The notes below the pieces were generated by a model that worked only from the letters and a program-made list of their open reading frames with translations, searched no databases and had not been told where the DNA came from. Shown here piece by piece: positions 9,614-32,673 of a stretch of DNA of 64,000 nt. The stretch comes from an uncultured Alphaproteobacteria bacterium (GTDB lineage: Bacteria; Pseudomonadota; Alphaproteobacteria; Rhizobiales; Rhodomicrobiaceae). The DNA lies in the NCBI GenBank assembly GCA_963766815.1, contig CAVYBZ010000025.1:12883-76882 (forward strand), in the 5' to 3' direction. Each line of letters opens with the position of its first letter. Within the stretch, counting starts at the first letter, position 1. The translations under genes were made by a program, and so were the position numbers.

Positions 9614-10333
9614 ATGCGATCGGGATTGTTGGCACAAAAGGTTGGCATGACGAGGATCTTCACCGAAGCGGGCGAGCATGTGCCGGTGACGGTGTTGAAA
9701 CTCGATCAATGCCAAGTAGTCGCGCATCGGACGCAAGAGGCGAACGGCTACACAGCGCTTCAACTCGGCGCAGGCACGCGCAAGGTGAAGAATGTGACGC
9801 GTGCTCAGCGCGGACACTTTGCCAAGGCGCAGGTCGAGCCGAAGGCCAAGGTGGTTGAATTTCGCGTTTCACCTGAGAATTTCATTGAGGTTGGGGCAGA
9901 ACTGACGGCGGATCACTTTGTTCCCGGGCAGTTCGTCGATGTGACCGGAACCAGCATTGGCAAGGGCTTCGCCGGCGCCATGAAGCGCTGGAATTTCGGC
10001 GGCTTGCGCGCGACGCATGGCGTCTCGATCTCGCACCGCAGCCATGGTTCGACCGGCAACCGGCAAGACCCCGGCAAGACCTTCAAAGGCAAGAAAATGG
10101 CCGGGCATTATGGCGTCGAGCGCATCACCACGCAGAATTTGAGGGTAGTCCGCACGGATGCCGAGCGCGGTCTGATCCTTATCCACGGGGCGATACCCGG
10201 CGCAAAGGGCGGCTGGGTCATGTTGCGGGACGCGGTCAAACGTCCCCTCCCGAAAGAGGCGCCAATACCCGGCGCCTTCCGCAAACTAAACAACGACAAC
10301 GCCGATGCAGGCTCGGAAGCGGGGGCGAAATGA
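9614..10333 (+). CDS. rplC: 50S ribosomal protein L3
   Basis: KVGMTRIF...[15 protein letters not shown]...GKKMAGHYG. Confidence 0.99.
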
Positions 10334-22382: not shown

Positions 22383-23399
22383 GTGCTTAACAAGAATTGG
22401 CAGGATCTGATTAAGCCGGGAAAGATTAACGTTCTCACCGGCGCTAATCCGAAATATATCGCGTCCATTGTGGCCGAGCCGCTAGAGCGTGGGTTCGGGC
22501 TTACGCTGGGCAATGCGCTGCGCCGCGTTCTGCTTTCCTCTCTTCAGGGCGGAGCCGTCACAACGGTACACATCGACGGCGTCCTTCACGAGTTCTCGTC
22601 CATTCCGGGCGTGCGCGAGGATGTGACGGACATCGTTCTCAATATCAAGGATATCGCGCTGCGGATTCATTCGGACGGCGTGAAGCGCATGGTGCTTCGA
22701 AAAGAAGGGCCGGGAGTCGCTCGCGCCCGCGATATCGACGCTGGACCGGATGTTGAAATTCTTAATCCGGACTTGGTGATTTGCACGCTCGACGAGGGCG
22801 CCACCGTGCGCATGGAGCTGACGGCGACCATCGGCAAGGGCTATGTCCCCGCCGAGCGGAACCGCCCCGACGACGCTCCGATCGGGCTTATTCCCGTGGA
22901 TAGCCTTTACAGTCCGGTCAAGAAGGTCTCCTACAAAATCGCCAATACGCGCGAAGGCCAAATCCTTGACTATGACAAGCTGACGCTTGAGGTTGAGACA
23001 AACGGCGCCGTCTCGCCCGAGGATTCGGTCGCGCTTGCTGCGCGCATCATTCAAGATCAGCTTTCGATCTTCGTCAACTTTGAAGAGCCGCGCAAGGAAG
23101 TCTCCGAGGAGCGTATTCCCCAACTTGAGTTCAATGCGGCGCTGCTTAAAAAGGTCGACGAGCTTGAACTGTCGGTGCGCTCGGCCAACTGCCTTAAGAA
23201 CGACAATATCGTCTATATCGGCGATCTCATTCAGAAGACTGAGGCGGAGATGTTGCGCACTCCGAATTTCGGGCGTAAGTCGCTGAACGAAATTAAAGAG
23301 GTGCTGGCTGGTATGGGGCTGCATCTTGGCATGGAAGTCCCGAATTGGCCGCCAGAGAACATCGAAGAGCTGGCGAAGCAATTCGAGGACCATTATTGA
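22383..23399 (+). CDS. rpoA: RNA polymerase alpha subunit
   Basis: [47 protein letters not shown]. Confidence 0.99.
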
Positions 23400-23456
23400 T
23401 TGAGGTTTGAATTCCCGCGGCGCTCAATGGGCGCAGCGGCCTTTGAGGGCGAGACA

Positions 23457-23873
23457 ATGCGTCACCGTAGATCCGGCCGTAAGTTCAACCGCACGGCAAG
23501 CCATCGCCAGGCCATGTTCGCGAACATGGCCGCCGCGCTCGTCAAGCACGAGCAAATCGTCACAACCCTTCCCAAGGCGAAAGATCTGCGGGGCGTGGTC
23601 GAAGCTCTCATTACCCTCGCCAAGCGTGGCGATCTCCATGCCCGCCGCGTAGTCGCGTCGCGCCTCCGCGATGACGCAACCGTTGCGAAGCTTTTCGAAA
23701 CGCTAGGCCCCCGCTATCATGACCGGCCCGGCGGCTATACCCGCGTCCTCAAGGCGGGCTTCCGCTATGGCGACAACGCGCCTCTCGCCGTGATCGAACT
23801 CGTGGATCGCGATGAAACCGCCAAGGGCCGGGATTCCGGTCCAGTCGAAGACGAGGCAAGTGCTGCGGCTTAG
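23457..23873 (+). CDS. rplQ: 50S ribosomal protein L17
   Basis: [20 protein letters not shown]...[10 protein letters not shown]; ATG at 23457. Confidence 0.99.
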
Positions 23874-24493
23874 TCCTGCGTAGCCGGAAGTTCTCTTTTC
23901 GCATGCCTTCGGCTTCGCGCTTTGTCCTGCCCGCGCGGCTTGGCGCCGCAAGGGAACGCGGCTCCCCCCTTCGCGGTGCGGGCTTACAACGCCGGACCTA
24001 ATAATCCAGGCGATCGGGAAGGCGTTTCGCAGCCTCTTTACTGGAAGACGCGTTTTTGAATCTCCGGCGCCGCCCTCGAAAACAGAGAGGGCCACGGGGC
24101 AGCCGAGCCCTCGCGTTAAGAAGGAGGCGAGGTCTTCGCGCGAATGACAGACCTCCCGGCTCCGTCGGCGATGAGCCGAAGCTTGCTTCCAGTGTTCAGG
24201 CGCGGGCGTCCAAGGCCGGGATGGGGTCGAAGGCTGGCTGAACGCCGCCGTTCCGGCCAGCGTCTGAGAAAGGTCAGTCATGCGGCACTCCCAAGTAATG
24301 GTCGATGCCGATGATTTTCGGGATGGGCTGGGCTTCACAGCCTTTCTTTCGGCGATCCGCCTTATGAACCAACCTCCCCGTAAGCCTAATTGGTAACGGT
24401 TAGGGTTCCACAACCTTTCGAATCTGTTAACGTCGACGCAAGCCTAAGGGGTGGAGAGGTCTAGATTTTCGCCATCGACGCGGACTGCACGCC

Positions 24494-25486
24494 ATGATGA
24501 CAAAGGGAAATCCCGTGCGCTTGCCGCAAGCCAATCCTGGATGCCTCCAGGTCATTGCCCCTGCCGGATTGGCCGCCGCCTACATCGCGGCGCAAAGGGA
24601 AGGGTGCACCAGGACGGACGCATGCGCGGCTCTTTCAGACTTCTTCGAAGCCGGACCAGTTTTTGAGGAAGCGGTGAAAGTTGCGCTGATCGGGGAGCGC
24701 GATGGCTTGCTTCACGCGGCGGCGCCGAGCGCCAACGGAGCAGGGCATCGGGCCGCAAGCTGGGCCGACGCAAAGCGAGATTTCGCCTTCCGCGCCCTTG
24801 GGTTCGAACCCGCCGCTGCAAAGGAAATCCGCGCGCCGAGAGATTTGCCGGCGGCCGCGCTGCGTCAGCTGTTCGGCTTGGATAGTCTTCCGCCTTCGGC
24901 CTCGCGAGCGGAGGTCCGTTGCGAGCTTCTCCGCCGCATCTTCGCTTCTTTCGGAGATCCGCTAGTAGCGCACGTTTCAAAACCGGCGAAGGCCTTCACC
25001 TTCGATCCGATGAGCCGCGGCATCTATCTCGCCTTCGCCGGGCTCAGCTCAGGCACGGTGCTCGACGCCGACGCCGCCCTGTTGTCGTCCGCCTTTGGCG
25101 GCCCCGCAGCGACCGTCGCCGAGCTTAGCGCGACTGTCATCCGCGCCGCGCTGAAAGCGAAAGGGGCGGCGGCGGAGAAAAAAGAGGAGGCTTTTAACTT
25201 GGACGGATTCGCTGAATCGGTCAGGAAGCTTGCCCGCAGGCTCGAAACCAAACCTTATGCCGGGCGCGTCGCGATCGCTCAAGTCTACGACGCCGGGCTT
25301 GCGGCAGGCTTGGAGCTTGGCACGCTCGACGAGTTCAAGCTGCAGCTTGCCGAAGCCGCTCGCGAAGGGCTTCTCGACCTCGAACGCTACGACATTACCG
25401 GCCCATTCGATGCAGGCCTGAAAGAGCGTTCGCGTTTGCGTCTTGGGCGCGATGAGCGTCACTTCATCGTCAACCAATGGATTTAG
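24494..25486 (+). CDS. Uncharacterised helical protein (possible C-terminal winged-helix-like domain), partner of the downstream ATPase
   Basis: 330-aa Ala-rich ORF with coding-like sequence; its stop overlaps the next start by 10 nt; no family recognised with certainty. Confidence 0.7.
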   Translation: MMTKGNPVRLPQANPGCLQVIAPAGLAAAYIAAQREGCTRTDACAALSDFFEAGPVFEEAVKVALIGERDGLLHAAAPSANGAGHRAASWADAKRDFAFRALGFEPAAAKEIRAPRDLPAAALRQLFGLDSLPPSASRAEVRCELLRRIFASFGDPLVAHVSKPAKAFTFDPMSRGIYLAFAGLSSGTVLDADAALLSSAFGGPAATVAELSATVIRAALKAKGAAAEKKEEAFNLDGFAESVRKLARRLETKPYAGRVAIAQVYDAGLAAGLELGTLDEFKLQLAEAAREGLLDLERYDITGPFDAGLKERSRLRLGRDERHFIVNQWI

Positions 25487-28400
25487 CGCCCAAAATCATG
25501 GATCTCCGCCTCCAGGCTTTCATCGGTCCTGAATTCGACCGCGTTTTCGGCGCCGTGGCTTCGCTCGCAGGCGCGGCGGACGAGGAGCGCGTCGACGTGC
25601 CTGAGATCGAGGCCGAGGCCAGCGACGCCATCGCCATGATCGCGTCTCAGGCGCGCGGATTGAATCCCGACCCGGCGTCCCGCATCCTTCTCATCAAGGG
25701 CGCGACCGGAACGGGAAAAACGCACACGCTTCTGACCGCCATCCGGCGCATGCACCAGGAGGGCGGGGTCTATGCGGCGCTGTTTCCGATGGTCGATCTC
25801 GTCGCCGAAAAGGATCTCGACGCTTGGCTGTTGCGCGCGCTTGTCTCGCGCCTGCAGGAGCGCTACCTCGTGGCGTCGGGGACGCCCTCGCCTCTGGCGC
25901 GGCTTGCGGAGGCCGTCCTTCACCGGGGACAGCCGGATTTGGCGTCGGCATTCCGGCGCGACGTGTTGGGCGATGGCGGCGACGTTCGCGACTTCGATCT
26001 GCGGCCGCTGATCGTCTCGATACGGACCAAGCTTCAGAAGCTCTCACATCTTCCCGTGCCCTCCGAGGCGTTCATGACGGCGCTGCTTGGAGCGGCGGCA
26101 GGAGACGACGATTCCTTCGCCTACCTTCGCGGTCAGCCGCTGAATGTGAGCATTGGCGGGGTACGCCTCACACAGTTCGCCGAGGACCACATCGCGCGCG
26201 CGCATATCGACGCGCTTGCGAACGTAATCGGCGCAACCGGCGGCGCTCTCTTTCTCGCCTTCGACCAGCTTGAGCAGAGCCGCGTGCAAGGGTGGGAGCA
26301 GCGGTTGCGGCACCTGTTCAGCAGAGGCGCGCTACTTGCGGAAACGCTGCCCCCGCTGTGTGTCGCGTATGCCGTGCTGCCCGCGCTCTACGATACCATT
26401 TCCGCAGGAATTGACGGTTCCATCCGCGACCGCATCGAGCGTTTCGGCGCGCTTCCCGTGCGATTGAGGCCGCTGGCCCGGCGTCAGGTCGAGGCGCTGC
26501 TGAAGCGCAGGCTCGCCGAGCTTTTCGAACGCTGCGGCGCCAAGGCCGACCCGGCCGAGCCCCTCTATCCTTTTCCGGCCTGGATGCTCGCTGAGCTTGG
26601 CGGGCAAACGTCACGCTATGTTTTTGAGCTCATCCAGCAATTCCGGCGCATCTATATGGCCACGGGCGCGCTGCCTGCGCTGGAGGACATGCCGCCTCCG
26701 CCTATCGTATCGAGCGACGCCCCCGCCCCCATCCCGGTTGTTGCGGCCACGACGAATTTCGACGACAAATGGCATGGCGAGCTGACCTCCAGAACAGTTC
26801 AGCCGTCGGTCGGCAACGGCATCCAGCAAGCCGAGATCCTCGAATGGGCCGTGCAGGCGTCGGCCGTGGAGATCGATGGCGTGACGGCCATCAAGACGCG
26901 GCGCAGCGTGCGGGGCCGCGCTGGCACCGTAGTGATCGAGGCCGATTTCCAGAACAATGGGCAGAGCGTCGAGCGCCGGGAAATCGCGCTCTGCAACGAG
27001 GCTCGCGGCGCGCCCCTTGCCGAGGAAATCCGGCTGTTTCTGCGCAGCGTGAACGGCGCGCGGCCCGTCATTGTGCGCCCGCGCGGCGGACGGCTTCCGC
27101 GCTCGGGCCGGTTCATCGCGCCGCTTATCAGGGACGCGGAGGAGATGCAATCGATCATCGTTCCGCAATTCGAGATGCTGTCTTGGGAGCGCCTCGATTC
27201 CGCGCGCCACTTCTTCAGGAATTTCAAGGACGCCGCCGGCTTCGAGGCTTGGCAGCGCGACGCCCGCCCGCTGACGAAAACGGCGGCGCTCTCGGATATC
27301 GTCCAGTATCCCTATATCAAAGCCGCCGATGACGAGGAGGCCGAGGAGGAGGCGCCCGAGCAGGCCGCGCCGCCTCCGCCGCCCGAGCCTCGCCGTAAGG
27401 CGCCCGCCGCACAGTCGGTCATGCTGGGCGTGCATGAGGATGGCGGGCAGGTGCATTGGGCGCCGTTCGAGACCGAGGCGAAGCTCCTGAATTTCGGCAT
27501 CCTGATCACGGGCGATCCAGGCTCGGGCAAAACGCAGACGCTGAATGTCTTGATCGACGGCGTCGCGGGGATGGGCTTCCCGGTCTGCATTTTCGACTTC
27601 AAGAACGACTATTCGGAGCGCGGTTTCGTGCAGCGGATCGGGCTCAAGGTGCACGATGTGCGCCGCTATGGCATCCCCTTCAATCCGCTGATGCCAAGCG
27701 CCAGCGACGATGGCCAGGCTCAGCCCATCGAGCATATTTTCACCATCACGGGCGTGCTGAAGCGCGTGTTCGGCTTGGGCGACCGGCAAACGGCGACTTT
27801 GCGCGACGCCATGAAGGAAGCGTTCGAGAGGCGCGGCGTCAATCCGCAAAAGTGGGTTCACGCGGACAGCCTGCGGCCTCCGAGCTTCGACGACGTGGTC
27901 GCCATCCTGGAGGAGCAAAAGGAGGCGCGGCATCCGCAGGCGATCAGCCTGCTCGACCGCATCGCGCCGCTGTTCGAGCTGGGCCTGTTCCCGAAGTCGG
28001 ACGAGTTGCCGGTGCCTTTCGAGGCCATGCTGGACGAGCGGATGGTGCTGTCGCTGTTCGCGCTTCCGACCGACGAGATCAAGGCGGCGCTCGCCGAGCT
28101 GATCATCATCCGGCTCCACGGCGTTCTCCTGCGCCGGGTGCAGCCCCGCAAGCTCACGCGGCTGCTCGTGGTGGATGAAGCGTGGCGCGTCGCCAGCAGC
28201 GCGCATCTTGAGAGCCTGGCCCGTGAAGGCCGCGCCTTCGGAGCCGGTATCGCCATCGGCACGCAATATCCAGGCGACTTGCCGGCCGATCTATCGGGCG
28301 CGCTGGACACCAAGATCTATCTCAAGAACCAGCAGCCGGATCACAAAAAGGCGGTTGTGCGGGCGCTGTGCGGAGCGAATTCCGGTCCCGACGCGGCGCA

Positions 28401-28527
28401 TCTGCACGGCGTTTTGGAGCGCCTGACCCAGTTCGAGGGGCTGATCCAGAACCAGCAATATCTCCCCTATGCGCGCTTCAAGCTGGTGCCCTATTTCGCC
28501 AGGGTCGAGCGGACGAAGGCCGCTTAG
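25477..28527 (+). CDS. Dual P-loop ATPase: N-terminal AAA+-like domain fused to a C-terminal HerA/FtsK-like (DUF87/DptH-like) ATPase
   Basis: Walker A GATGTGKT (25699-25722) with Walker B-like LAFDQLE; second Walker A GDPGSGKT (27511-27534), IFDFKNDY, Walker B LLVVDEAW and HerA-type AREGRAFG/GTQ motifs; acidic/Pro linker before the second domain. Confidence 0.85.
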   Translation: MDLAPKIMDLRLQAFIGPEFDRVFGAVASLAGAADEERVDVPEIEAEASDAIAMIASQARGLNPDPASRILLIKGATGTGKTHTLLTAIRRMHQEGGVYAALFPMVDLVAEKDLDAWLLRALVSRLQERYLVASGTPSPLARLAEAVLHRGQPDLASAFRRDVLGDGGDVRDFDLRPLIVSIRTKLQKLSHLPVPSEAFMTALLGAAAGDDDSFAYLRGQPLNVSIGGVRLTQFAEDHIARAHIDALANVIGATGGALFLAFDQLEQSRVQGWEQRLRHLFSRGALLAETLPPLCVAYAVLPALYDTISAGIDGSIRDRIERFGALPVRLRPLARRQVEALLKRRLAELFERCGAKADPAEPLYPFPAWMLAELGGQTSRYVFELIQQFRRIYMATGALPALEDMPPPPIVSSDAPAPIPVVAATTNFDDKWHGELTSRTVQPSVGNGIQQAEILEWAVQASAVEIDGVTAIKTRRSVRGRAGTVVIEADFQNNGQSVERREIALCNEARGAPLAEEIRLFLRSVNGARPVIVRPRGGRLPRSGRFIAPLIRDAEEMQSIIVPQFEMLSWERLDSARHFFRNFKDAAGFEAWQRDARPLTKTAALSDIVQYPYIKAADDEEAEEEAPEQAAPPPPPEPRRKAPAAQSVMLGVHEDGGQVHWAPFETEAKLLNFGILITGDPGSGKTQTLNVLIDGVAGMGFPVCIFDFKNDYSERGFVQRIGLKVHDVRRYGIPFNPLMPSASDDGQAQPIEHIFTITGVLKRVFGLGDRQTATLRDAMKEAFERRGVNPQKWVHADSLRPPSFDDVVAILEEQKEARHPQAISLLDRIAPLFELGLFPKSDELPVPFEAMLDERMVLSLFALPTDEIKAALAELIIIRLHGVLLRRVQPRKLTRLLVVDEAWRVASSAHLESLAREGRAFGAGIAIGTQYPGDLPADLSGALDTKIYLKNQQPDHKKAVVRALCGANSGPDAAHLHGVLERLTQFEGLIQNQQYLPYARFKLVPYFARVERTKAA

Positions 28528-29090
28528 TTCGTCCCTGGTTGCCGCCGCCTCTTAACCCGATGATAACCGCGATATTTTGCATTTGAAATCCGCTTTTAAA
28601 AATGGCCAGCTTCTCAATCGATGCGAGTAGGATAGCCGAAAGCCCCTTACCGAACCGTAACCTTAGGTTTTTCAGAGGCTTACAAGGTGGAGCGACGTCT
28701 TTGCATCAAGTTGTGGAAACCGGGCTCGCAACCCCAGGCTGGGATTTACGGTTAATCCGCGCAACTATCTATATTTAACGGACTTTTGCGAGTCCCTTTT
28801 TCGCGGGTTAAGCGCATTTTTCCCGCAAAATCGGGCAGGAAAGTATTGCCGCGCGCCGCCGTTAAGCATGATGATTTTAACCATGTTCCCGCTTGAGCGC
28901 GCATTTGGCCGGATTATGCTTCTCAATAGATATCGCCGATGACCCTGCCACGAAATCATCGGCCGGTTTTGTTATGAGGATGATGTCTCTGGCTTTAGCT
29001 TTTAGCGGGGTATCATGCAATGCGTTGACCGCAGCCCAGATAGAGCTATCTTTTCCCGACGCAACACCTTAGCCGGGCTGGCCTTCTTCC

Positions 29091-30281
29091 ATGGCGGACA
29101 TTTTCATCTCCTACGCGCGCTCCGACCGCGATACCGCAAGGCGGCTCGCGGCCTATCTCAAAGATTCCGGCCTCAGCGTCTGGTGGGACATGAGCCTCAA
29201 GCCGGGCGAGGTGTTCCGCGAGGAGATCGAGCGGCGCATCGGCGAGGCGCGGCACGTGATCGTGCTGTGGTCCGAGACTTCGGTGAAATCGCATTTCGTG
29301 CTGGACGAAGCGGGCGAGGCGGCGCGGCAGAATAAGCTCGTGCCGCTGCGCATCGACGGCTGCAAGCTGCCTTTGGGCTTCGGCCAGCATCATACGCATA
29401 CGGTGAGCGCTTGGCCCGGCGATCTGGCGCCCGTGCTGGCGGTTGTCGGCAGCGGCAAGGTGCCCGCCCAATCCGCATCGGCTTCGGTCCAAACCGCTCA
29501 AGATTTCTTCAAGAGCGCTTACGCCGCCAAAGATGCGGGAGATTTCGACCAAGCGATTTCCGACTACAGCGAAGCGATACGCCTGAAGCCGGATGACGCA
29601 ATCGCCTACAACAATCGCGGCAACGCCTTTCTTGCGAAAGGCGATAATGACCGGGCCATCGCCGATTACGATCAAGCGATACGCCTGAAGCCGGATGACG
29701 CAATCGCCTACAACAATCGCGGCAACGCCTTTCTTGCGAAAGGCGATAATGACCGGGCCATCGCCGATTACGATCAAGCGATACGCCTGAAGCCGGATTA
29801 CGCGGACGCCTACTACAATCGCGGCAACGCCTATTACGCGAAAGGCGACAAGGACCGAGCCATCGCCGATTACGATCAAGCGATACGCCTGAAGCCGGAT
29901 GACGCAAGGCCCTACAACAATCGCGGCAACGCCTATCACGCGAAAGGCGACCATGACAGCGCCATCGCCGATTACGATCAAGCGATCCGACTACAGCCGG
30001 ATTACGCACCCGCCTACTGCAATCGCGGCAACGCCTATCACGCGAAAGGCGACCATGACAGCGCCATCGCCGATTACGATCAAGCGATCCGCCTGAAACC
30101 GGATGATGCAGACGCCTACAACGGGCGCGGCCTCTCCTATTACCGCAAAGGGGATTATGCGCGAGCGATCAGCGATTATGATCGGGCGCTCGGGATCGAT
30201 CCCAATCACAAGCTGGTCGCAGAGAATAAGGCGCTTGCGGAGAAGAAGCTTGCGAAGGCCAAGAAGAAGGGTTGGTTTTAG
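29091..30281 (+). CDS. TIR domain protein with seven C-terminal TPRs
   Basis: N-terminal DIFISYARSD...VWWD...IVLWSETSVKSHFVLDEA (TIR_2-type, catalytic-position Glu retained); seven 34-aa repeats of type AYNNRGNA..AKGD.D.AIADYDQAIRLKPD. Confidence 0.9.
   Translation: MADIFISYARSDRDTARRLAAYLKDSGLSVWWDMSLKPGEVFREEIERRIGEARHVIVLWSETSVKSHFVLDEAGEAARQNKLVPLRIDGCKLPLGFGQHHTHTVSAWPGDLAPVLAVVGSGKVPAQSASASVQTAQDFFKSAYAAKDAGDFDQAISDYSEAIRLKPDDAIAYNNRGNAFLAKGDNDRAIADYDQAIRLKPDDAIAYNNRGNAFLAKGDNDRAIADYDQAIRLKPDYADAYYNRGNAYYAKGDKDRAIADYDQAIRLKPDDARPYNNRGNAYHAKGDHDSAIADYDQAIRLQPDYAPAYCNRGNAYHAKGDHDSAIADYDQAIRLKPDDADAYNGRGLSYYRKGDYARAISDYDRALGIDPNHKLVAENKALAEKKLAKAKKKGWF
29496..30209 (+). repeat. Coding tandem repeat, 7 x 102 nt (TPR units)
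   Basis: 102-nt periodicity; 29572-29798 is a perfect period-102 duplication. Confidence 0.9.
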
Positions 30282-30345
30282 GGCGCGGGCTTGCCGCCGC
30301 TTGCTCAATCGCTTTTCCAAGCGCCCCGTGCTAGAACACTATACA

Positions 30346-30594
30346 ATGACAGACCTCTTGCAAAACGCCTTCGAAACCGTGCGCCGCCTGCCGCCAGAGG
30401 CGCAGGATCAGATCGCGGAAGCCATATTGGCGCTGGCCACCGGAGGGGCGGCGCCGGATCGCGCGTTGTTCCAGGTCTGCCCCGAGGTGGATGCCGAGTT
30501 TCTTGCGCGCCTCGACGAGCCGCAGCAGCCCAATGAGCGTTTACGAAAAACCATGCAGGCGTCCATTCATATCTATCTATTGAAAAGGAATAGC
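30346..30594 (+). pseudogene. Chimeric antitoxin-like remnants (small helical antitoxin-like N-terminus plus DUF1778/TacA-like C-terminal fragment)
   Basis: MTDLLQNAFETVRRLPPEAQDQIAEAILALA followed in frame by LFQVCPEVDAEFLARLDEPQQPNERLRKTMQ, which resembles the DUF1778 C-terminus; reads through into the CopG gene. Confidence 0.45.
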
Positions 30595-30870
30595 ATGGCA
30601 GGCCCCGACACCGCAGAGCTGACGGCACATGTGCCCTTGGCGCTGGCCGAGAAAATCGACCGGCTCGCGGAACGGGATGAACGCTCGCGCGCCTCGATCG
30701 TCAAGGAAGCGCTGATCGCCTGGGTCGAGCAGGAAGAAGAGCGCGACCGGCTGACCCGCGAGGCCCTGGCCGATGTGGACGCCGGGCGGTTAATCGATCA
30801 TCGGGACGTGCAATCATGGGCCGATAGCCTCGGCGCCGGGGAGCCGAAGCCGCTTCCGGCCGCCCGGTGA
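30595..30870 (+). CDS. CopG/ribbon-helix-helix antitoxin (ParD-like)
   Basis: AAAAGGAA RBS then ATG 30595; LTAHVPLALAEKIDRLAERDERSRASIVKEAL...EALADVDAGRLIDH; its TGA overlaps the toxin ATG. Confidence 0.8.
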   Translation: MAGPDTAELTAHVPLALAEKIDRLAERDERSRASIVKEALIAWVEQEEERDRLTREALADVDAGRLIDHRDVQSWADSLGAGEPKPLPAAR

Positions 30871-31123
30871 TGGATGTCCAGTGGACAAGCGAGGGCACGA
30901 TTTTCTGGCGCCGGTAAACAAGCTTGCGGCGGCGCGCGTCGCGCAATCGCTGACGGCGGCGGCGTCCAAGCTCCCCGCCAACCCTCGTATCGGCAGGAAG
31001 CTGGAGCAGTTCGAACCGCGCGAGGTTCGCCGCATCTTCGCCGGCGATTACGAAATGCGCTATGAAATCGCGGGATCGACGATCTACGTGCTCAGAATTT
31101 GGCATACGAAAGAAAATCGCTGA
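30870..31123 (+). pseudogene. RelE/ParE family toxin with a frameshifting deletion near the N-terminus
   Basis: ATG 30870 gives MDVQWTSE; the rest (HDFLAPVNK...NPRIGRKLE...EMRYEI...VLRIWHTKENR) is in another frame, and the usual helix between them appears to be missing. Confidence 0.75.
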
Positions 31124-31224
31124 GCTGCGGGCAGTCTCAGTGCAGCCGTCGCGAACCGGCGGCCGCCGTTGATTTGCCGTATCCGCCAGCATAATGTGAC
31201 TGCGACATGGCTGGGAGCGCTCGC

Positions 31225-31560
31225 ATGGACGTTGCAGCTCAAATCGCCGATCTCACGCGCCGCGTCGCCGCGCTCGAAGCGGAAGCCGAAGGGCAGCAGC
31301 GTTACAATGCGCGAATTCTCCGGATGCTTACCGAATTGCGCGACGACGTGGCTATCCTGCGCACGCATGCCGTTGGACTCGGCCAAAGGTTCGATGCGCT
31401 GGAGGCCAAGGTCGAAAGGCTGGACGCCAAGTTCGATGGGCTGGAGGCGAAGGCCGGATCGCTGGAGGCCAAGGTCTCGGCGGAGATTGGCGGCCTTCGC
31501 CGCGATCTGCCTGGCATCATCGCCGAGACCATGCGCGAGGTGCTGCGGGAACGGAAATAG
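31225..31560 (+). CDS. Small coiled-coil hypothetical protein
   Basis: GGGAG RBS before ATG 31225 (alternative start 31207); heptad repeats LEAKVERLDAKFDGLEAKAGSLEAKV. Confidence 0.65.
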   Translation: MDVAAQIADLTRRVAALEAEAEGQQRYNARILRMLTELRDDVAILRTHAVGLGQRFDALEAKVERLDAKFDGLEAKAGSLEAKVSAEIGGLRRDLPGIIAETMREVLRERK

Positions 31561-31847
31561 GCCTTTCCGCGCCATCTAGCACACCTCAATGGATACCACC
31601 CTCAGACTCCCCTCTGACTAAGTCTCTATTGGCAGGCGGGGGGCTCGTTGTAATTGATCTGGCGCCGCGGCTGAATGTTATCCGGATAGCCAGAAAAAGG
31701 CCGCATAACTTGTGCGGAATAGTGTTTTCCCTGTGGTTATCGCGCCACGTTCGTCAAAATTTGGCCATCTTCTGCAAAATCCAAGCAAAAGTGATTTTTT
31801 TGTAACAAAACTCACGCGAAATCAGACATCCTGACAAAGGTAAATAC

Positions 31848-31938: not shown

Positions 31939-32673
31939 ATGCTTGCTACAACGCTTCAGCGTGATACATCGGCGCTTCTTCACGATGCAGGGGCTTCACG
32001 GGTCCTTATTTGCGGTAAGTCTTTTATCGCCGATCCGACAGGCGCCCTTTTTCGGCCGGCTGAGAACACGCTTATTGTCGCCGACCTGCAACTTTCGAAG
32101 TGCTCCTATCTCGAAGGGGAGGACGTGGTCCTTCCTCCCTACGATACGGCATCGGCTTTCGAGAAACTTGAGGACGCGCTCGACCGCTACGATCCTCTCC
32201 GCGTCATCGCGCTCGGCAACAGTTTTGCCGGGTTCACTTCGGACGGCCTTAGCCATCATCAGAGCGACTGGCTTCAGGATATGATGGAGGGGCGTGAGTG
32301 GTATTGGGTGGCGTCGGATCTTTGCCCGCCGCCTGACGGGATCGGTGGCACGGCCGTGCCGCAGATGATGCTCGGCGGCATCAAGTTTCGTGCGGAGCCG
32401 GTTCGCGCGCCTGTCGCCAATGAGATTGCCGGGGGCTTGCATCCGGTGGCGCAGGTCTCGCATTACGGCCACCTCGTTCGCGGGCGCTGCTTCGTCTCGA
32501 ACGGCATGCGGATGATCCTGCCGTCGCTCGGCAATTACTCCTCCGGAACCAATGTGCTAAGTTCGGCCTTCGATCCTCTTCTCGGCCAGGGCGGCTTGTT
32601 CGTATGGTTCATCTCTCAAGAGCGGGTGTCTTCGGTGGCGTCTCCCCAGCTCATGGAAGACCGCGCCGCTTAG
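31939..32673 (+). CDS. PdeM-like (ligase-associated DNA damage response) metallophosphoesterase homologue with degenerate active site
   Basis: Overall match to the PdeM pattern (ADPTGAL..P...LIVADL, LPPYDT, IALG.SF, FR.EP, LHP, R.RCF, ILPSLG.Y..G.NV), but most metal ligands are substituted. Confidence 0.75.
   Translation: MLATTLQRDTSALLHDAGASRVLICGKSFIADPTGALFRPAENTLIVADLQLSKCSYLEGEDVVLPPYDTASAFEKLEDALDRYDPLRVIALGNSFAGFTSDGLSHHQSDWLQDMMEGREWYWVASDLCPPPDGIGGTAVPQMMLGGIKFRAEPVRAPVANEIAGGLHPVAQVSHYGHLVRGRCFVSNGMRMILPSLGNYSSGTNVLSSAFDPLLGQGGLFVWFISQERVSSVASPQLMEDRAA

Follow-up and report, generated by a model that had tools for sequence, protein, structure and literature searches.

Is a TIR-TPR gene that lies directly downstream of a dual-ATPase gene a sensor-effector in its own right, or does it serve as the effector of its neighbour? 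This question is raised by a 64,000-nucleotide stretch of Rhodomicrobium DNA (contig CAVYBZ010000025.1; the whole stretch is hereafter referred to as the window), for which a first-pass annotation had put forward both readings. A literature search combining Rhodomicrobium and the TIR domain yielded no paper. The features of the locus are collected in Table 1.

Table 1. Features of the TIR-TPR locus, with positions in the window
Feature	Position	Strand	Basis or remark
P0003	24494-25486	+	First gene of the genus-conserved two-gene module 24494-28527
P0002, dual ATPase	25477-28527	+	Pfam and PADLOC
Non-coding spacer, ~500 bp	28528-29023	.	From the ATPase gene to the TIR-TPR leader
Conserved promoter-like leader, ~65 bp	29024-29090	+	Consensus scan and alignment of 11 loci
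TIR-TPR gene	29091-30281	+	ATG start, 396 aa; ORF and translation
TIR domain, residues 1-120	29091-29450	+	Pfam TIR_2, fold match, invariant residues
Catalytic-type Glu73 codon	29307-29309	+	Within the TIR domain
Ala/Ser/Pro-rich flexible linker, residues 121-135	29451-29495	+	Disordered in the model
Seven TPR repeats (136-369) and C-terminal capping helix (374-394)	29496-30272	+	Pfam and model
Tandem DNA repeat, unit 102 bp	29572-30122	+	Tandem Repeats Finder; encodes the central TPR units
Fused RHH/TacA-like antitoxin ORF	30343-30870	+	Pfam RHH_1 E 8e-7, TacA1 E 1e-5
Short ParE-like toxin ORF, GTG start	30881-31123	+	Pfam ParE_toxin E 2.8e-12, profile positions 16-88 of 89
Small coiled-coil ORF, DUF7310-like	31207-31560	+ (uncertain)	Pfam DUF7310 E 9e-6, below cut-off
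PdeM-like gene	31939-32673	+	NCBIfam TIGR04123, 119 bits (cut-off 150)

Architecture of the TIR-TPR protein

The TIR-TPR protein begins with a TIR_2 domain, continues with seven near-consensus TPRs and ends in a capping helix; it is a cytoplasmic, single-gene protein with neither a signal peptide nor a membrane segment. A Pfam search of the protein returned no match to a P-loop or STAND NTPase family between TIR and TPR. The window copy is fully intact and the longest among its orthologues, whose lengths of 221-396 aa imply that the number of TPR repeats varies from ~2 to 7 between strains. The AlphaFold2 model of the full-length protein has a mean pLDDT of 94.5, with the beta-alpha TIR core visible; because a fold search with this model returned TPR proteins only, a separate model of the TIR domain was built and searched.

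Residues 4-101 match Pfam TIR_2 (PF13676) at 81 bits (cut-off 28), and the 'ISY' and 'VLDEA' motifs that the first-pass annotation had noted in an N-terminal TIR domain are indeed located, at F5-I6-S7-Y8 and V70-A74, respectively. The catalytic glutamate, which the same annotation had described as retained, is E73: this residue, together with D33 and W60, is invariant among 120 homologues, and it pairs with a glutamate of 7uxr, the top match when solved structures were searched by sequence. The next matches, PdTIR (3h16) and AbTir (7uwg, 8g83), give alignments that end before residue 73. E73 provides the conserved helix alpha-C glutamate of catalytic (NADase) TIRs, at a position which we take to be that of AbTir E208 and SARM1 E642. 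Where the family consensus has Trp in 'SxWVxxE', the window protein has Phe69, and most of its orthologues have Phe as well; this change in the WxxxE motif can be regarded as conservative. Furthermore, a TIR-only AlphaFold2 model (pLDDT 82), which has the flavodoxin-like beta-alpha fold of TIRs, matches the SPARTA TIR-APAZ, AbTir and SARM1 TIRs with TM scores of 0.75-0.81 and a probability of 1.00.

Comparison of the window TIR with those of nine orthologues gives dN/dS values of 0.19-0.56, with a median of 0.31 over all 66 pairs, and the gene is under moderate purifying selection. At ~0.3, the dN/dS of TIR-TPR is looser than that of its flanking genes.

The TIR domain is joined to the TPRs by a linker that has no secondary structure in the AlphaFold2 model (residues 124-127 have a pLDDT <50), and whose sequence and length differ among orthologues. 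The seven TPRs counted in the first-pass annotation reappear as seven Pfam stretches (TPR_1 E 6.5e-71, TPR_11 E 5.7e-76) and as 14 paired helices plus cap in the model, with a pLDDT >95. Together the repeats form a rigid solenoid, for which Foldseek ranks highest designed TPR proteins of consensus sequence (41-42% identity) and the TPR superhelix of OGT. The underlying 102-bp DNA repeat is present in 5.4 copies with 89% matches, and in translation TPR repeats 2 and 3 differ by a single residue.

The dual-ATPase module and its co-occurrence with TIR-TPR

P0002 combines an AAA_22/AAA_16-type P-loop region (residues ~66-100) with a HerA/FtsK/DndH-type ATPase (~650-1010). It lies on the same strand as TIR-TPR, and the measured gap of 563 bp agrees with the ~560 bp of the first-pass annotation. 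Of 24 genomes from the same genus, Rhodomicrobium, 22 contain the P0003/P0002 pair, at 79-91% identity, compared with five that contain a TIR-TPR orthologue. Among 29 close P0002 loci, TIR-TPR occupies the slot behind P0002 in seven, has left remnants in two (~250 bp in L064 and 77 bp in L062), is displaced to another contig in one genome and is absent from 19; one orthologue (G023) carries a 1-bp deletion at codon 8. None of the 11 distant loci, which form a 57%-identity clade, has a TIR near P0002 (~7 kb downstream for most), nor was a TIR found in the downstream sequence, again ~7 kb for most, of homologues that correspond to the C-terminal part of P0002 only. TIR-TPR is thus not a conserved component of the P0002 neighbourhood (7/29 close and 0/11 distant loci; 22/24 versus 5/24 genomes), and the co-occurrence check that the first-pass annotation had suggested, in which TIR-TPR genes were sought beside dual-ATPase homologues, speaks against the proposed link.

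The distribution of TIR-TPR on the P0002 tree requires at least four gains or losses, the TIR-bearing loci falling into two P0002 subclades, and P0002 itself is strongly constrained (dN/dS ~0.10) with or without TIR-TPR alongside. Seen from the other side, TIR-TPR lies directly downstream of P0002 in at least 11 of the 13 contexts in which an orthologue was examined, the P0010 contig being probably a twelfth, and the distance from P0002 stop to TIR start is as little as 92-99 bp in other genomes. Since two subclades carry the gene, adjacency recurs and such short gaps occur, P0002 and TIR-TPR may be co-transcribed and may form a facultative partnership. No gene is conserved beside TIR-TPR in every orthologue context.

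The synonymous divergence of the TIR gene fails to track that of its flanks, and its genealogy is shallower than theirs, as judged from a sample of only ~100 codons. An ancestral insertion followed by vertical descent only is not the whole story, given that TIR dS is decoupled from flanking dS. Targeted re-insertion was not accepted either, since allelic recombination inside the gene gives the same pattern in this ~100-codon sample.

A variable slot with toxin-antitoxin genes

TIR-TPR has a history of gain and loss in a variable slot that also gathers toxin-antitoxin genes. In the window, the ORFs at 30343-31123 are toxin-antitoxin remnants sharing this slot, and in related contigs ParE, RHH and TacA genes come after TIR-TPR. 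The strand of the DUF7310-like ORF is uncertain because an antisense ORF (31084-31575) is equally open; the corresponding segment precedes TIR-TPR in L100 and L064 and follows it in the window, L054 and L102. In most same-genus genomes a PdeM-like gene is found 117-245 bp after P0002, usually at ~230 bp, and this gene is usually the immediate downstream neighbour of P0002 when the slot is empty.

A leader of its own

DNA similarity to every orthologous locus restarts at ~29024-29030, where a conserved leader begins. It contains TTGACC (29025-29030) and TATCTT (29047-29052), followed by a conserved 5' stretch, GCAACnC..AGnCCGGCTG. A consensus promoter scan places a site at 29025-29052; the region as a whole is not enriched for promoters and terminators relative to shuffled sequence, and this predicted promoter is given weight only because it is conserved across loci. 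An alignment of the sequence 5' of the gene at 11 loci shows the leader block in all of them, including L051 and L108, in which P0002 is not upstream. For example, in G010 (contig C5) and L108 other, unrelated genes (HIT, aminotransferase) lie upstream, yet the leader is kept and the TIR-TPR ORF is intact. On the best reading, TIR-TPR is probably an independently transcribed unit with its own promoter-like leader.

The spacer between P0002 and this leader is lower in GC, with values of 0.45-0.59 at each of the three codon positions. A blastn comparison with related loci gave no match to it, and it is specific to the window genome. An Rfam scan of the whole gap between P0002 and TIR-TPR returned no match.

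Other TIR proteins

The first-pass annotation had held that the adjacency would be incidental if the genome carried many unlinked TIR-TPR paralogues. Twenty TIR_2 loci were found, of which 19 are unlinked to the P0002 ATPase, and this bears the incidental reading out. The twenty include five TIR-STAND proteins and two further proteins that combine TIR with Pfam-detected TPRs and lack an NTPase; partners across the set are STAND, WD40, FGE-sulfatase, DUF4268 and Pycsar-type. The paralogues are 27-44% identical to the window protein in the TIR domain, and none is linked to the TIR-TPR gene.

TIR heads that are 72-74% identical to that of the window and carry other tails (NYN; a tail of 522 aa) sit in unrelated neighbourhoods, and in other bacteria TIRs of the clade to which the window TIR belongs have caspase, trypsin, FGE-sulfatase, Sel1, kinase, FHA and NYN domains as fusion partners. 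A protein search of a phage collection gave TPR-only matches, and one of plasmids gave four weak and uninformative TIR matches (31-38% identity) on alphaproteobacterial megaplasmids.

Proposed function and rival explanations

TIR-TPR is probably a TIR-II-like, single-gene NADase of the anti-phage type, in which the TPRs would sense or gate and which would act independently of P0002. The TPR solenoid would bind a trigger, for which a phage protein or peptide is the likeliest candidate, or would keep the TIR heads apart; the bound trigger would then allow the TIRs to self-associate and complete a composite active site around Glu73. NAD+ would be hydrolysed or cyclised by the assembled TIRs, and its depletion would halt the infected cell; less likely, the TIR product would be a signal for an unlinked receptor. 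The adjacency of P0002 and TIR-TPR would reflect a shared hotspot just past the P0002 stop codon and not an obligate pairing. Of the two readings in the first-pass annotation, that of a stand-alone sensor-effector fits a single intact gene under purifying selection, with its own leader everywhere examined and with a precedent in TIR-II (PMC11350192). The other, an effector for the upstream ATPase, finds no support, as the pair is near-universal in the genus and mostly without TIR-TPR, distant homologues have no TIR nearby, one lineage keeps an intact TIR-TPR split from the ATPase, and close relatives of the TIR head with other tails lie elsewhere.

That second idea survives in a weaker form, which we regard as unlikely: TIR-TPR might be a facultative effector arm of the P0003/P0002 capture module, whose ATPases would trap or detect invading DNA and activate or recruit TIR-TPR via its TPRs, so that it supplies NAD+ depletion to a module that here lacks an active nuclease. 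A HerA ATPase is paired with an NADase in Sir2-HerA-type systems, which provide a precedent. The gene lies on the same strand and directly 3' of P0002, the recurrent adjacency and the short gaps described above point the same way, as does the presence of TIR in two separate P0002 subclades, and the shallow TIR genealogy would be compatible with repeated re-entry to the same slot. Furthermore, Orc/Cdc6 relatives can be TIR-fused (PMC10853773). However, 19 of 29 close and all 11 distant P0002 loci are without TIR-TPR and P0002 is still intact and constrained in them; TIR-TPR has a conserved leader of its own and is intact though split from P0002 in G010 and L108; in the window a non-conserved 500-bp spacer parts the two genes; and the deletion remnants indicate repeated loss. 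The adjacency comes from one genus only and is therefore not independent evidence, and allele exchange by homologous recombination inside the gene explains the shallow genealogy without site targeting. A variant to which we give only a slim chance regards the position after the P0002 stop as a docking slot that takes interchangeable effector cassettes, with TIR-TPR as a plug-in NADase arm engaged via its TPRs. If so, TIR-TPR would spread from one Rhodomicrobium lineage to another together with its leader, and the locus would offer a pairing of HerA and NADase comparable to Sir2-HerA, though a modular and facultative one.

It is likewise improbable that TIR-TPR is a node in a network of TIR proteins, i.e., an adaptor, co-assembling amplifier or decoy that joins STAND-nucleated TIR filaments and has no sensing of its own. 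The twenty TIR_2 loci with their five NLR-like TIR-STAND proteins, and the many fusion partners of the same TIR clade in other bacteria, are consistent with such a network, and an effector/adaptor logic has been described for multicellular bacteria (PMC7159879, PMC8195603), but the paralogous TIRs are only 27-44% identical and unlinked, and the invariant glutamate points to catalysis over pure scaffolding. A non-immune role appears quite improbable too: here the protein would be a TPR scaffold in a budding, filament-forming bacterium, with the TIR as an interaction or nucleotide-binding module, or else the gene would be decaying. The near-consensus TPRs resemble those of housekeeping MamA, PilW, NlpI and Ycf3 (NCBIfam, all under cut-off), the dN/dS is relaxed relative to the flanks, and orthologues are being lost (the L064 and L062 remnants, and the 1-bp G023 deletion). 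Nevertheless, its patchy distribution, toxin-antitoxin company and variation in repeat number are what defence genes typically show, the catalytic glutamate is invariant, and the window copy is the longest and intact, with no signal peptide or membrane segment.

If TIR-TPR is indeed a TIR-II-like NADase, it would be an alphaproteobacterial and minimal (396 aa) addition to the one-gene TIR+TPR defence class. It would also offer a small model of how a solenoid gates the assembly of a TIR NADase without an NTPase switch, and of how TPR copy number (~2-7) tunes that gating. The tempting link to the ATPases is taken away, the usual neighbour of the module being the PdeM-like gene and not TIR-TPR. 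TIR biology as currently understood is unaltered.

Comparison with known systems

As the first-pass annotation had stated, neither ThsA nor another known partner is present: in a PADLOC search of the TIR-TPR gene and its neighbours, neither Thoeris nor any other complete system was matched strongly. Thoeris was rejected on the grounds that no neighbour fits ThsA or a further Thoeris model and that the ThsB models match weakly (E 4.6e-4 to 4.7e-3). In 'capture' systems, HerA/FtsK ATPases are coupled to Orc/Cdc6, and related Orc/Cdc6 ATPases are sometimes TIR-fused (Rakesh, Aravind and Krishnan, NAR 2024, PMC10853773). P0002 has the same architecture, but TIR-TPR is not conserved in its neighbourhood.

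A TPR array that regulates an NAD+-processing head in anti-phage defence has been reported for BcTir/BcTpr of Bacillus cereus (bioRxiv 10.1101/2023.05.26.542521) and, as that preprint cites Burroughs and Aravind (2020), for TPR-centred assemblies. In BcTir/BcTpr the reported NADase head on the TPR protein is not a TIR, the TIR being a separate protein, whereas in the window TIR and TPR are fused and there is no second conserved gene; membership of the BcTir/Tpr type was rejected for these reasons. The five TIR-STAND-TPR (NLR-like/Avs-type) proteins of the same genome likewise place a TIR effector at the N-terminus and a TPR sensor array at the C-terminus. STAND/Avs membership was rejected as well, as a 15-residue linker takes the place of the NTPase switch between TIR and TPR, and because no NTPase stands there, activation would have to work without nucleotide-dependent oligomerisation.

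Among solved bacterial TIRs, AbTir (7uwg, 7uxu, 8g83), PdTIR (3h16), 7uxr, BtpA/TcpB (4c7m, 4lzp, 4lqc) and the SPARTA TIR share the fold of the window TIR (TM 0.64-0.81) at only 23-30% identity, and the FISH/FISY beta-A motif is common to the window TIR and the solved stand-alone and SPARTA TIRs. Their partners are a coiled-coil, APAZ/Argonaute or none, in contrast to the TPR solenoid of the window TIR, and several of these proteins target host cells instead of phage.

[quoted passage not shown] Its members carry TIR and TPR in one protein or divided over two, and ~30% also have an ATPase domain (PMC11350192). The window protein differs in having no ATPase domain, in its alphaproteobacterial (Rhodomicrobium) origin, in near-consensus 34-residue TPRs that derive from a 102-bp repeat, and in Phe instead of the motif Trp. 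Compared by domain architecture only, it resembles TIR-II in being one polypeptide with TIR and TPR and no obligate partner gene, and, as read from its sequence, TIR-TPR falls within a type of one-gene bacterial immune protein that has been described before.

Architecture of the TIR-TPR protein

The ATG-start ORF under study encodes a 396-residue protein, and its frame is marked as coding by the GC content at third codon positions. Pfam places a TIR_2 domain at residues 4-101, with 81 bits against a cut-off of 28, and recognises seven stretches of TPR (TPR_1, E = 6.5e-71). The AlphaFold2 model (mean pLDDT 94.5) exhibits a TIR core of the beta-alpha type, then a disordered linker (residues 121-135) and, at residues 136-369, fourteen paired helices, i.e., seven TPRs, followed by a capping helix. 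A 102-bp tandem repeat in the DNA (5.4 copies, 89% matches) underlies the central TPRs, and orthologue lengths of 221 to 396 residues, the copy in the window being the longest, indicate that the TPR repeat number varies. A Foldseek search with the whole model returned TPR proteins only, the best being designed consensus TPRs (41-42% identity), followed by the OGT superhelix, and the TIR-only model matched the TIR domains of SPARTA TIR-APAZ, AbTir and SARM1 with TM values of 0.75-0.81. Sequence comparison with solved chains ranks 7uxr, PdTIR (3h16), AbTir and BtpA/TcpB as the nearest; a Glu of 7uxr is aligned with the catalytic-type Glu 73, and residue 73 lies beyond the end of the printed alignments for PdTIR and AbTir. 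Glu 73, Asp 33 and Trp 60 are invariant in an alignment of 120 homologues, and in this protein and most of its orthologues Phe 69 stands where the SxWVxxE motif usually has Trp. The Pfam matches, the model, the structural matches and the invariant Glu 73 thus agree in every particular with the first-pass annotation, which had described a TIR domain with a retained catalytic glutamate plus seven TPRs.

Genomic context and occupancy of the position behind P0002

Features of the TIR-TPR region (window coordinates)
Feature	Position	Strand	Description
rpoA-rplQ region	22383-24494		upstream, before P0003
P0003	24494-25486		330 aa; no family match
P0002	25477-28527		1016 aa; N-terminal AAA_22/AAA_16-type P-loop, C-terminal HerA/FtsK ATPase
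Spacer	28528-29023		500 bp; lower GC, non-coding
Sigma-70-like site	29025-29052		consensus scan
TIR-TPR gene	29091-30281	+	feature under study
RHH/TacA-like antitoxin ORF	within 30343-31123	+	fused
ParE-like toxin ORF	within 30343-31123	+	short
Small coiled-coil ORF			downstream of TIR-TPR
PdeM-like gene	31939-32673	+	TIGR04123, 119 bits (cut-off 150)
Alph_Pro_TM gene, TauE, Sel1-repeat gene			listed after the PdeM-like gene

The C-terminal ATPase of P0002 resembles the C-terminus of DndH (PADLOC, E = 3.5e-29), and the P0003/P0002 pair has been assigned to the 'capture' class (Orc/Cdc6-HerA/FtsK) that Rakesh et al. describe (PMC10853773). P0002 is present in 22 of 24 genomes of the same genus (79-91% identity), whereas only five of the 24, counting the window's own, have a TIR-TPR orthologue, defined by a TIR identity of 75% or more. 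The usual order is P0003, P0002, the PdeM-like gene 117-245 bp further on, Alph_Pro_TM, TauE and the Sel1 gene, and TIR-TPR therefore occupies a slot that is usually empty. The short distance to the PdeM-like gene in most Rhodomicrobium genomes suggests that the conserved unit may be the trio of P0003, P0002 and the PdeM-like gene, whose product, a possibly degenerate phosphoesterase, may represent the 'missing nuclease' of the capture-type module.

Among 29 non-redundant close P0002 loci, TIR-TPR is present in seven, reduced to deletion remnants in two (approximately 250 bp of the 5' end in L064; 77 bp in L062) and absent from 19, while in the remaining genome (G010) it is located on another contig along with the downstream genes. 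No TIR was found in the sequence fetched downstream (~7 kb for most) at any of the 11 loci of a P0002 clade of 57% identity, nor in that fetched downstream of C-terminal-only P0002 homologues in Methylobacterium, a myxobacterium and a planctomycete. These counts do not support the role of effector for the upstream ATPase module, one of the two that the first-pass annotation had proposed. Furthermore, the TIR-TPR carriers fall into two subclades of the P0002 tree, requiring at least four gains or losses, and purifying selection on P0002 is strong (dN/dS ~0.10) with or without TIR-TPR.

The genes upstream of P0003/P0002 differ by lineage, and the downstream block is widely shared. The location right after rpoA-rplQ is peculiar to the window's genome, these genes being absent from the 3-7 kb upstream of P0003/P0002 at every other locus. 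The RHH ORF bears an in-frame N-terminal TacA-like fragment, and the ParE-like ORF, which starts at GTG, spans profile positions 16-88 of 89; both have the look of toxin-antitoxin remnants. In related contigs their place is occupied by intact pairs, either ParE/RHH or TacA/acetyltransferase. In the CAWFNZ MAG, which also has a full-length P0002 gene (L064), three loci (L085, L086 and L087) match only P0002 residues ~643-1012, the HerA/FtsK part, with 76-81% identity, and may represent a duplicated or mobile P0002 fragment.

Leader, selection and history of the gene

Inter-locus DNA similarity ends at the P0002 stop codon and restarts at window 29024, approximately 65 bp ahead of the TIR-TPR start codon, with a promoter-like leader (TTGAAC-N17-GCTAnnTT) that is conserved in all contexts, including those without P0002 upstream. 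The 563 bp between the two genes appear non-coding by GC content per codon position, and the spacer that separates the leader from P0002 has no similar stretch at related loci and matches nothing in Rfam; in other genomes only ~25-30 bp lie between the P0002 stop and the leader. In the lineage of G010 and L108, unrelated genes precede an ORF that is still intact.

TIR heads of 72-74% identity with different tails occur in unrelated contexts, e.g., those of L104 and L106/L107, whose tails are a NYN domain (P0016) and a 522-residue tail without other recorded Pfam family (P0019). Ahead of the L104 copy stands a related leader, suggesting that the head plus leader may recombine onto different C-termini. 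A more distant TIR-TPR protein of Sphingomicrobium has no ATPase neighbour. Elsewhere in bacteria this TIR clade is fused to caspase, trypsin, FGE-sulfatase, Sel1, DUF805, kinase, FHA and NYN domains, a pattern described for conflict systems of multicellular bacteria by Kaur et al. (PMC8195603).

The TIR is under purifying selection, looser than that on the flanking genes (dN/dS 0.19-0.56 against orthologues; median 0.31 over all pairs). Its dS against the window, based on ~100 codons, is 0.15-0.36, i.e., about one third of that of P0002 in the same genome pairs (0.75-0.91) and far lower than in the PdeM-like, TauE and Sel1 genes (0.8-1.5); TIR and P0002 dS are uncorrelated (r = -0.10, 28 pairs), and GC3 is alike. 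The TIR-TPR genealogy is thus shallow and decoupled from its flanks, which may reflect either allele exchange between lineages by recombination or recent spread of the cassette.

Alternative explanations and comparison with known systems

P0002 lies directly upstream in at least 11 of 13 orthologue contexts examined (shortest stop-to-start gap 92-99 bp), and a probable twelfth is the contig of P0010, which breaks off inside the upstream gene. This adjacency would suit an effector arm used facultatively by the ATPase module. Such a role is improbable given the scattered occupancy of the slot and the leader retained without P0002. The window's genome holds 20 TIR_2 loci, and none of the other nineteen (L110-L128, e.g., C16:53837-54844, C27:143824-146118 and C23:49385-50800) is linked to the single-copy P0002, a finding that, by the first-pass annotation's own yardstick of many unlinked TIR-TPR paralogues, makes the adjacency incidental. 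The adjacency, put forward in the first-pass annotation as a possible functional link, is most likely positional. By Pfam these loci comprise five NLR-like TIR-STAND proteins (TPRs detected in three of them), a further two TIR-TPR proteins that lack an NTPase, one each of WD40-TIR, TIR-FGE-sulfatase and TIR-DUF4268, one double TIR (TIR_2 plus a CAP12/Pycsar-type TIR) and proteins, several of them short, with TIR as the sole Pfam domain found. One of the TIR-STAND proteins contains 13 near-identical TPR_12 units.

This abundance would also accommodate a node in a TIR-TIR network of the genome, a reading just as doubtful as the effector arm. Least expected is a non-immune or decaying gene, against which stands the invariant catalytic-type Glu. 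In its favour, the G023 orthologue (L054, G023:C19, ~10280-10320) has a 1-bp deletion at the Tyr 8 codon of the TIR domain, which marks either a pseudogene or an error of long-read sequencing or assembly.

Of the two roles proposed in the first-pass annotation, the one-protein architecture and the separate leader favour a stand-alone sensor-effector, and the link to P0002 finds no such support. In a stand-alone protein, the TPR solenoid would most likely bind a trigger or restrain the TIR heads; self-association of the TIRs, driven by the trigger, would then switch on NAD+ cleavage at Glu 73. A validated anti-phage precedent for TIR plus TPR in one protein is TIR-II of E. coli, in which defence depends on the TIR active-site residues and which is ranked the most widespread among the TIR systems of that study (PMC11350192). 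The TIR-TPR gene is grouped with E. coli TIR-II by architecture, the likeness being one of domain layout alone, and in this respect joins an already described class of single-gene TIR plus TPR proteins.
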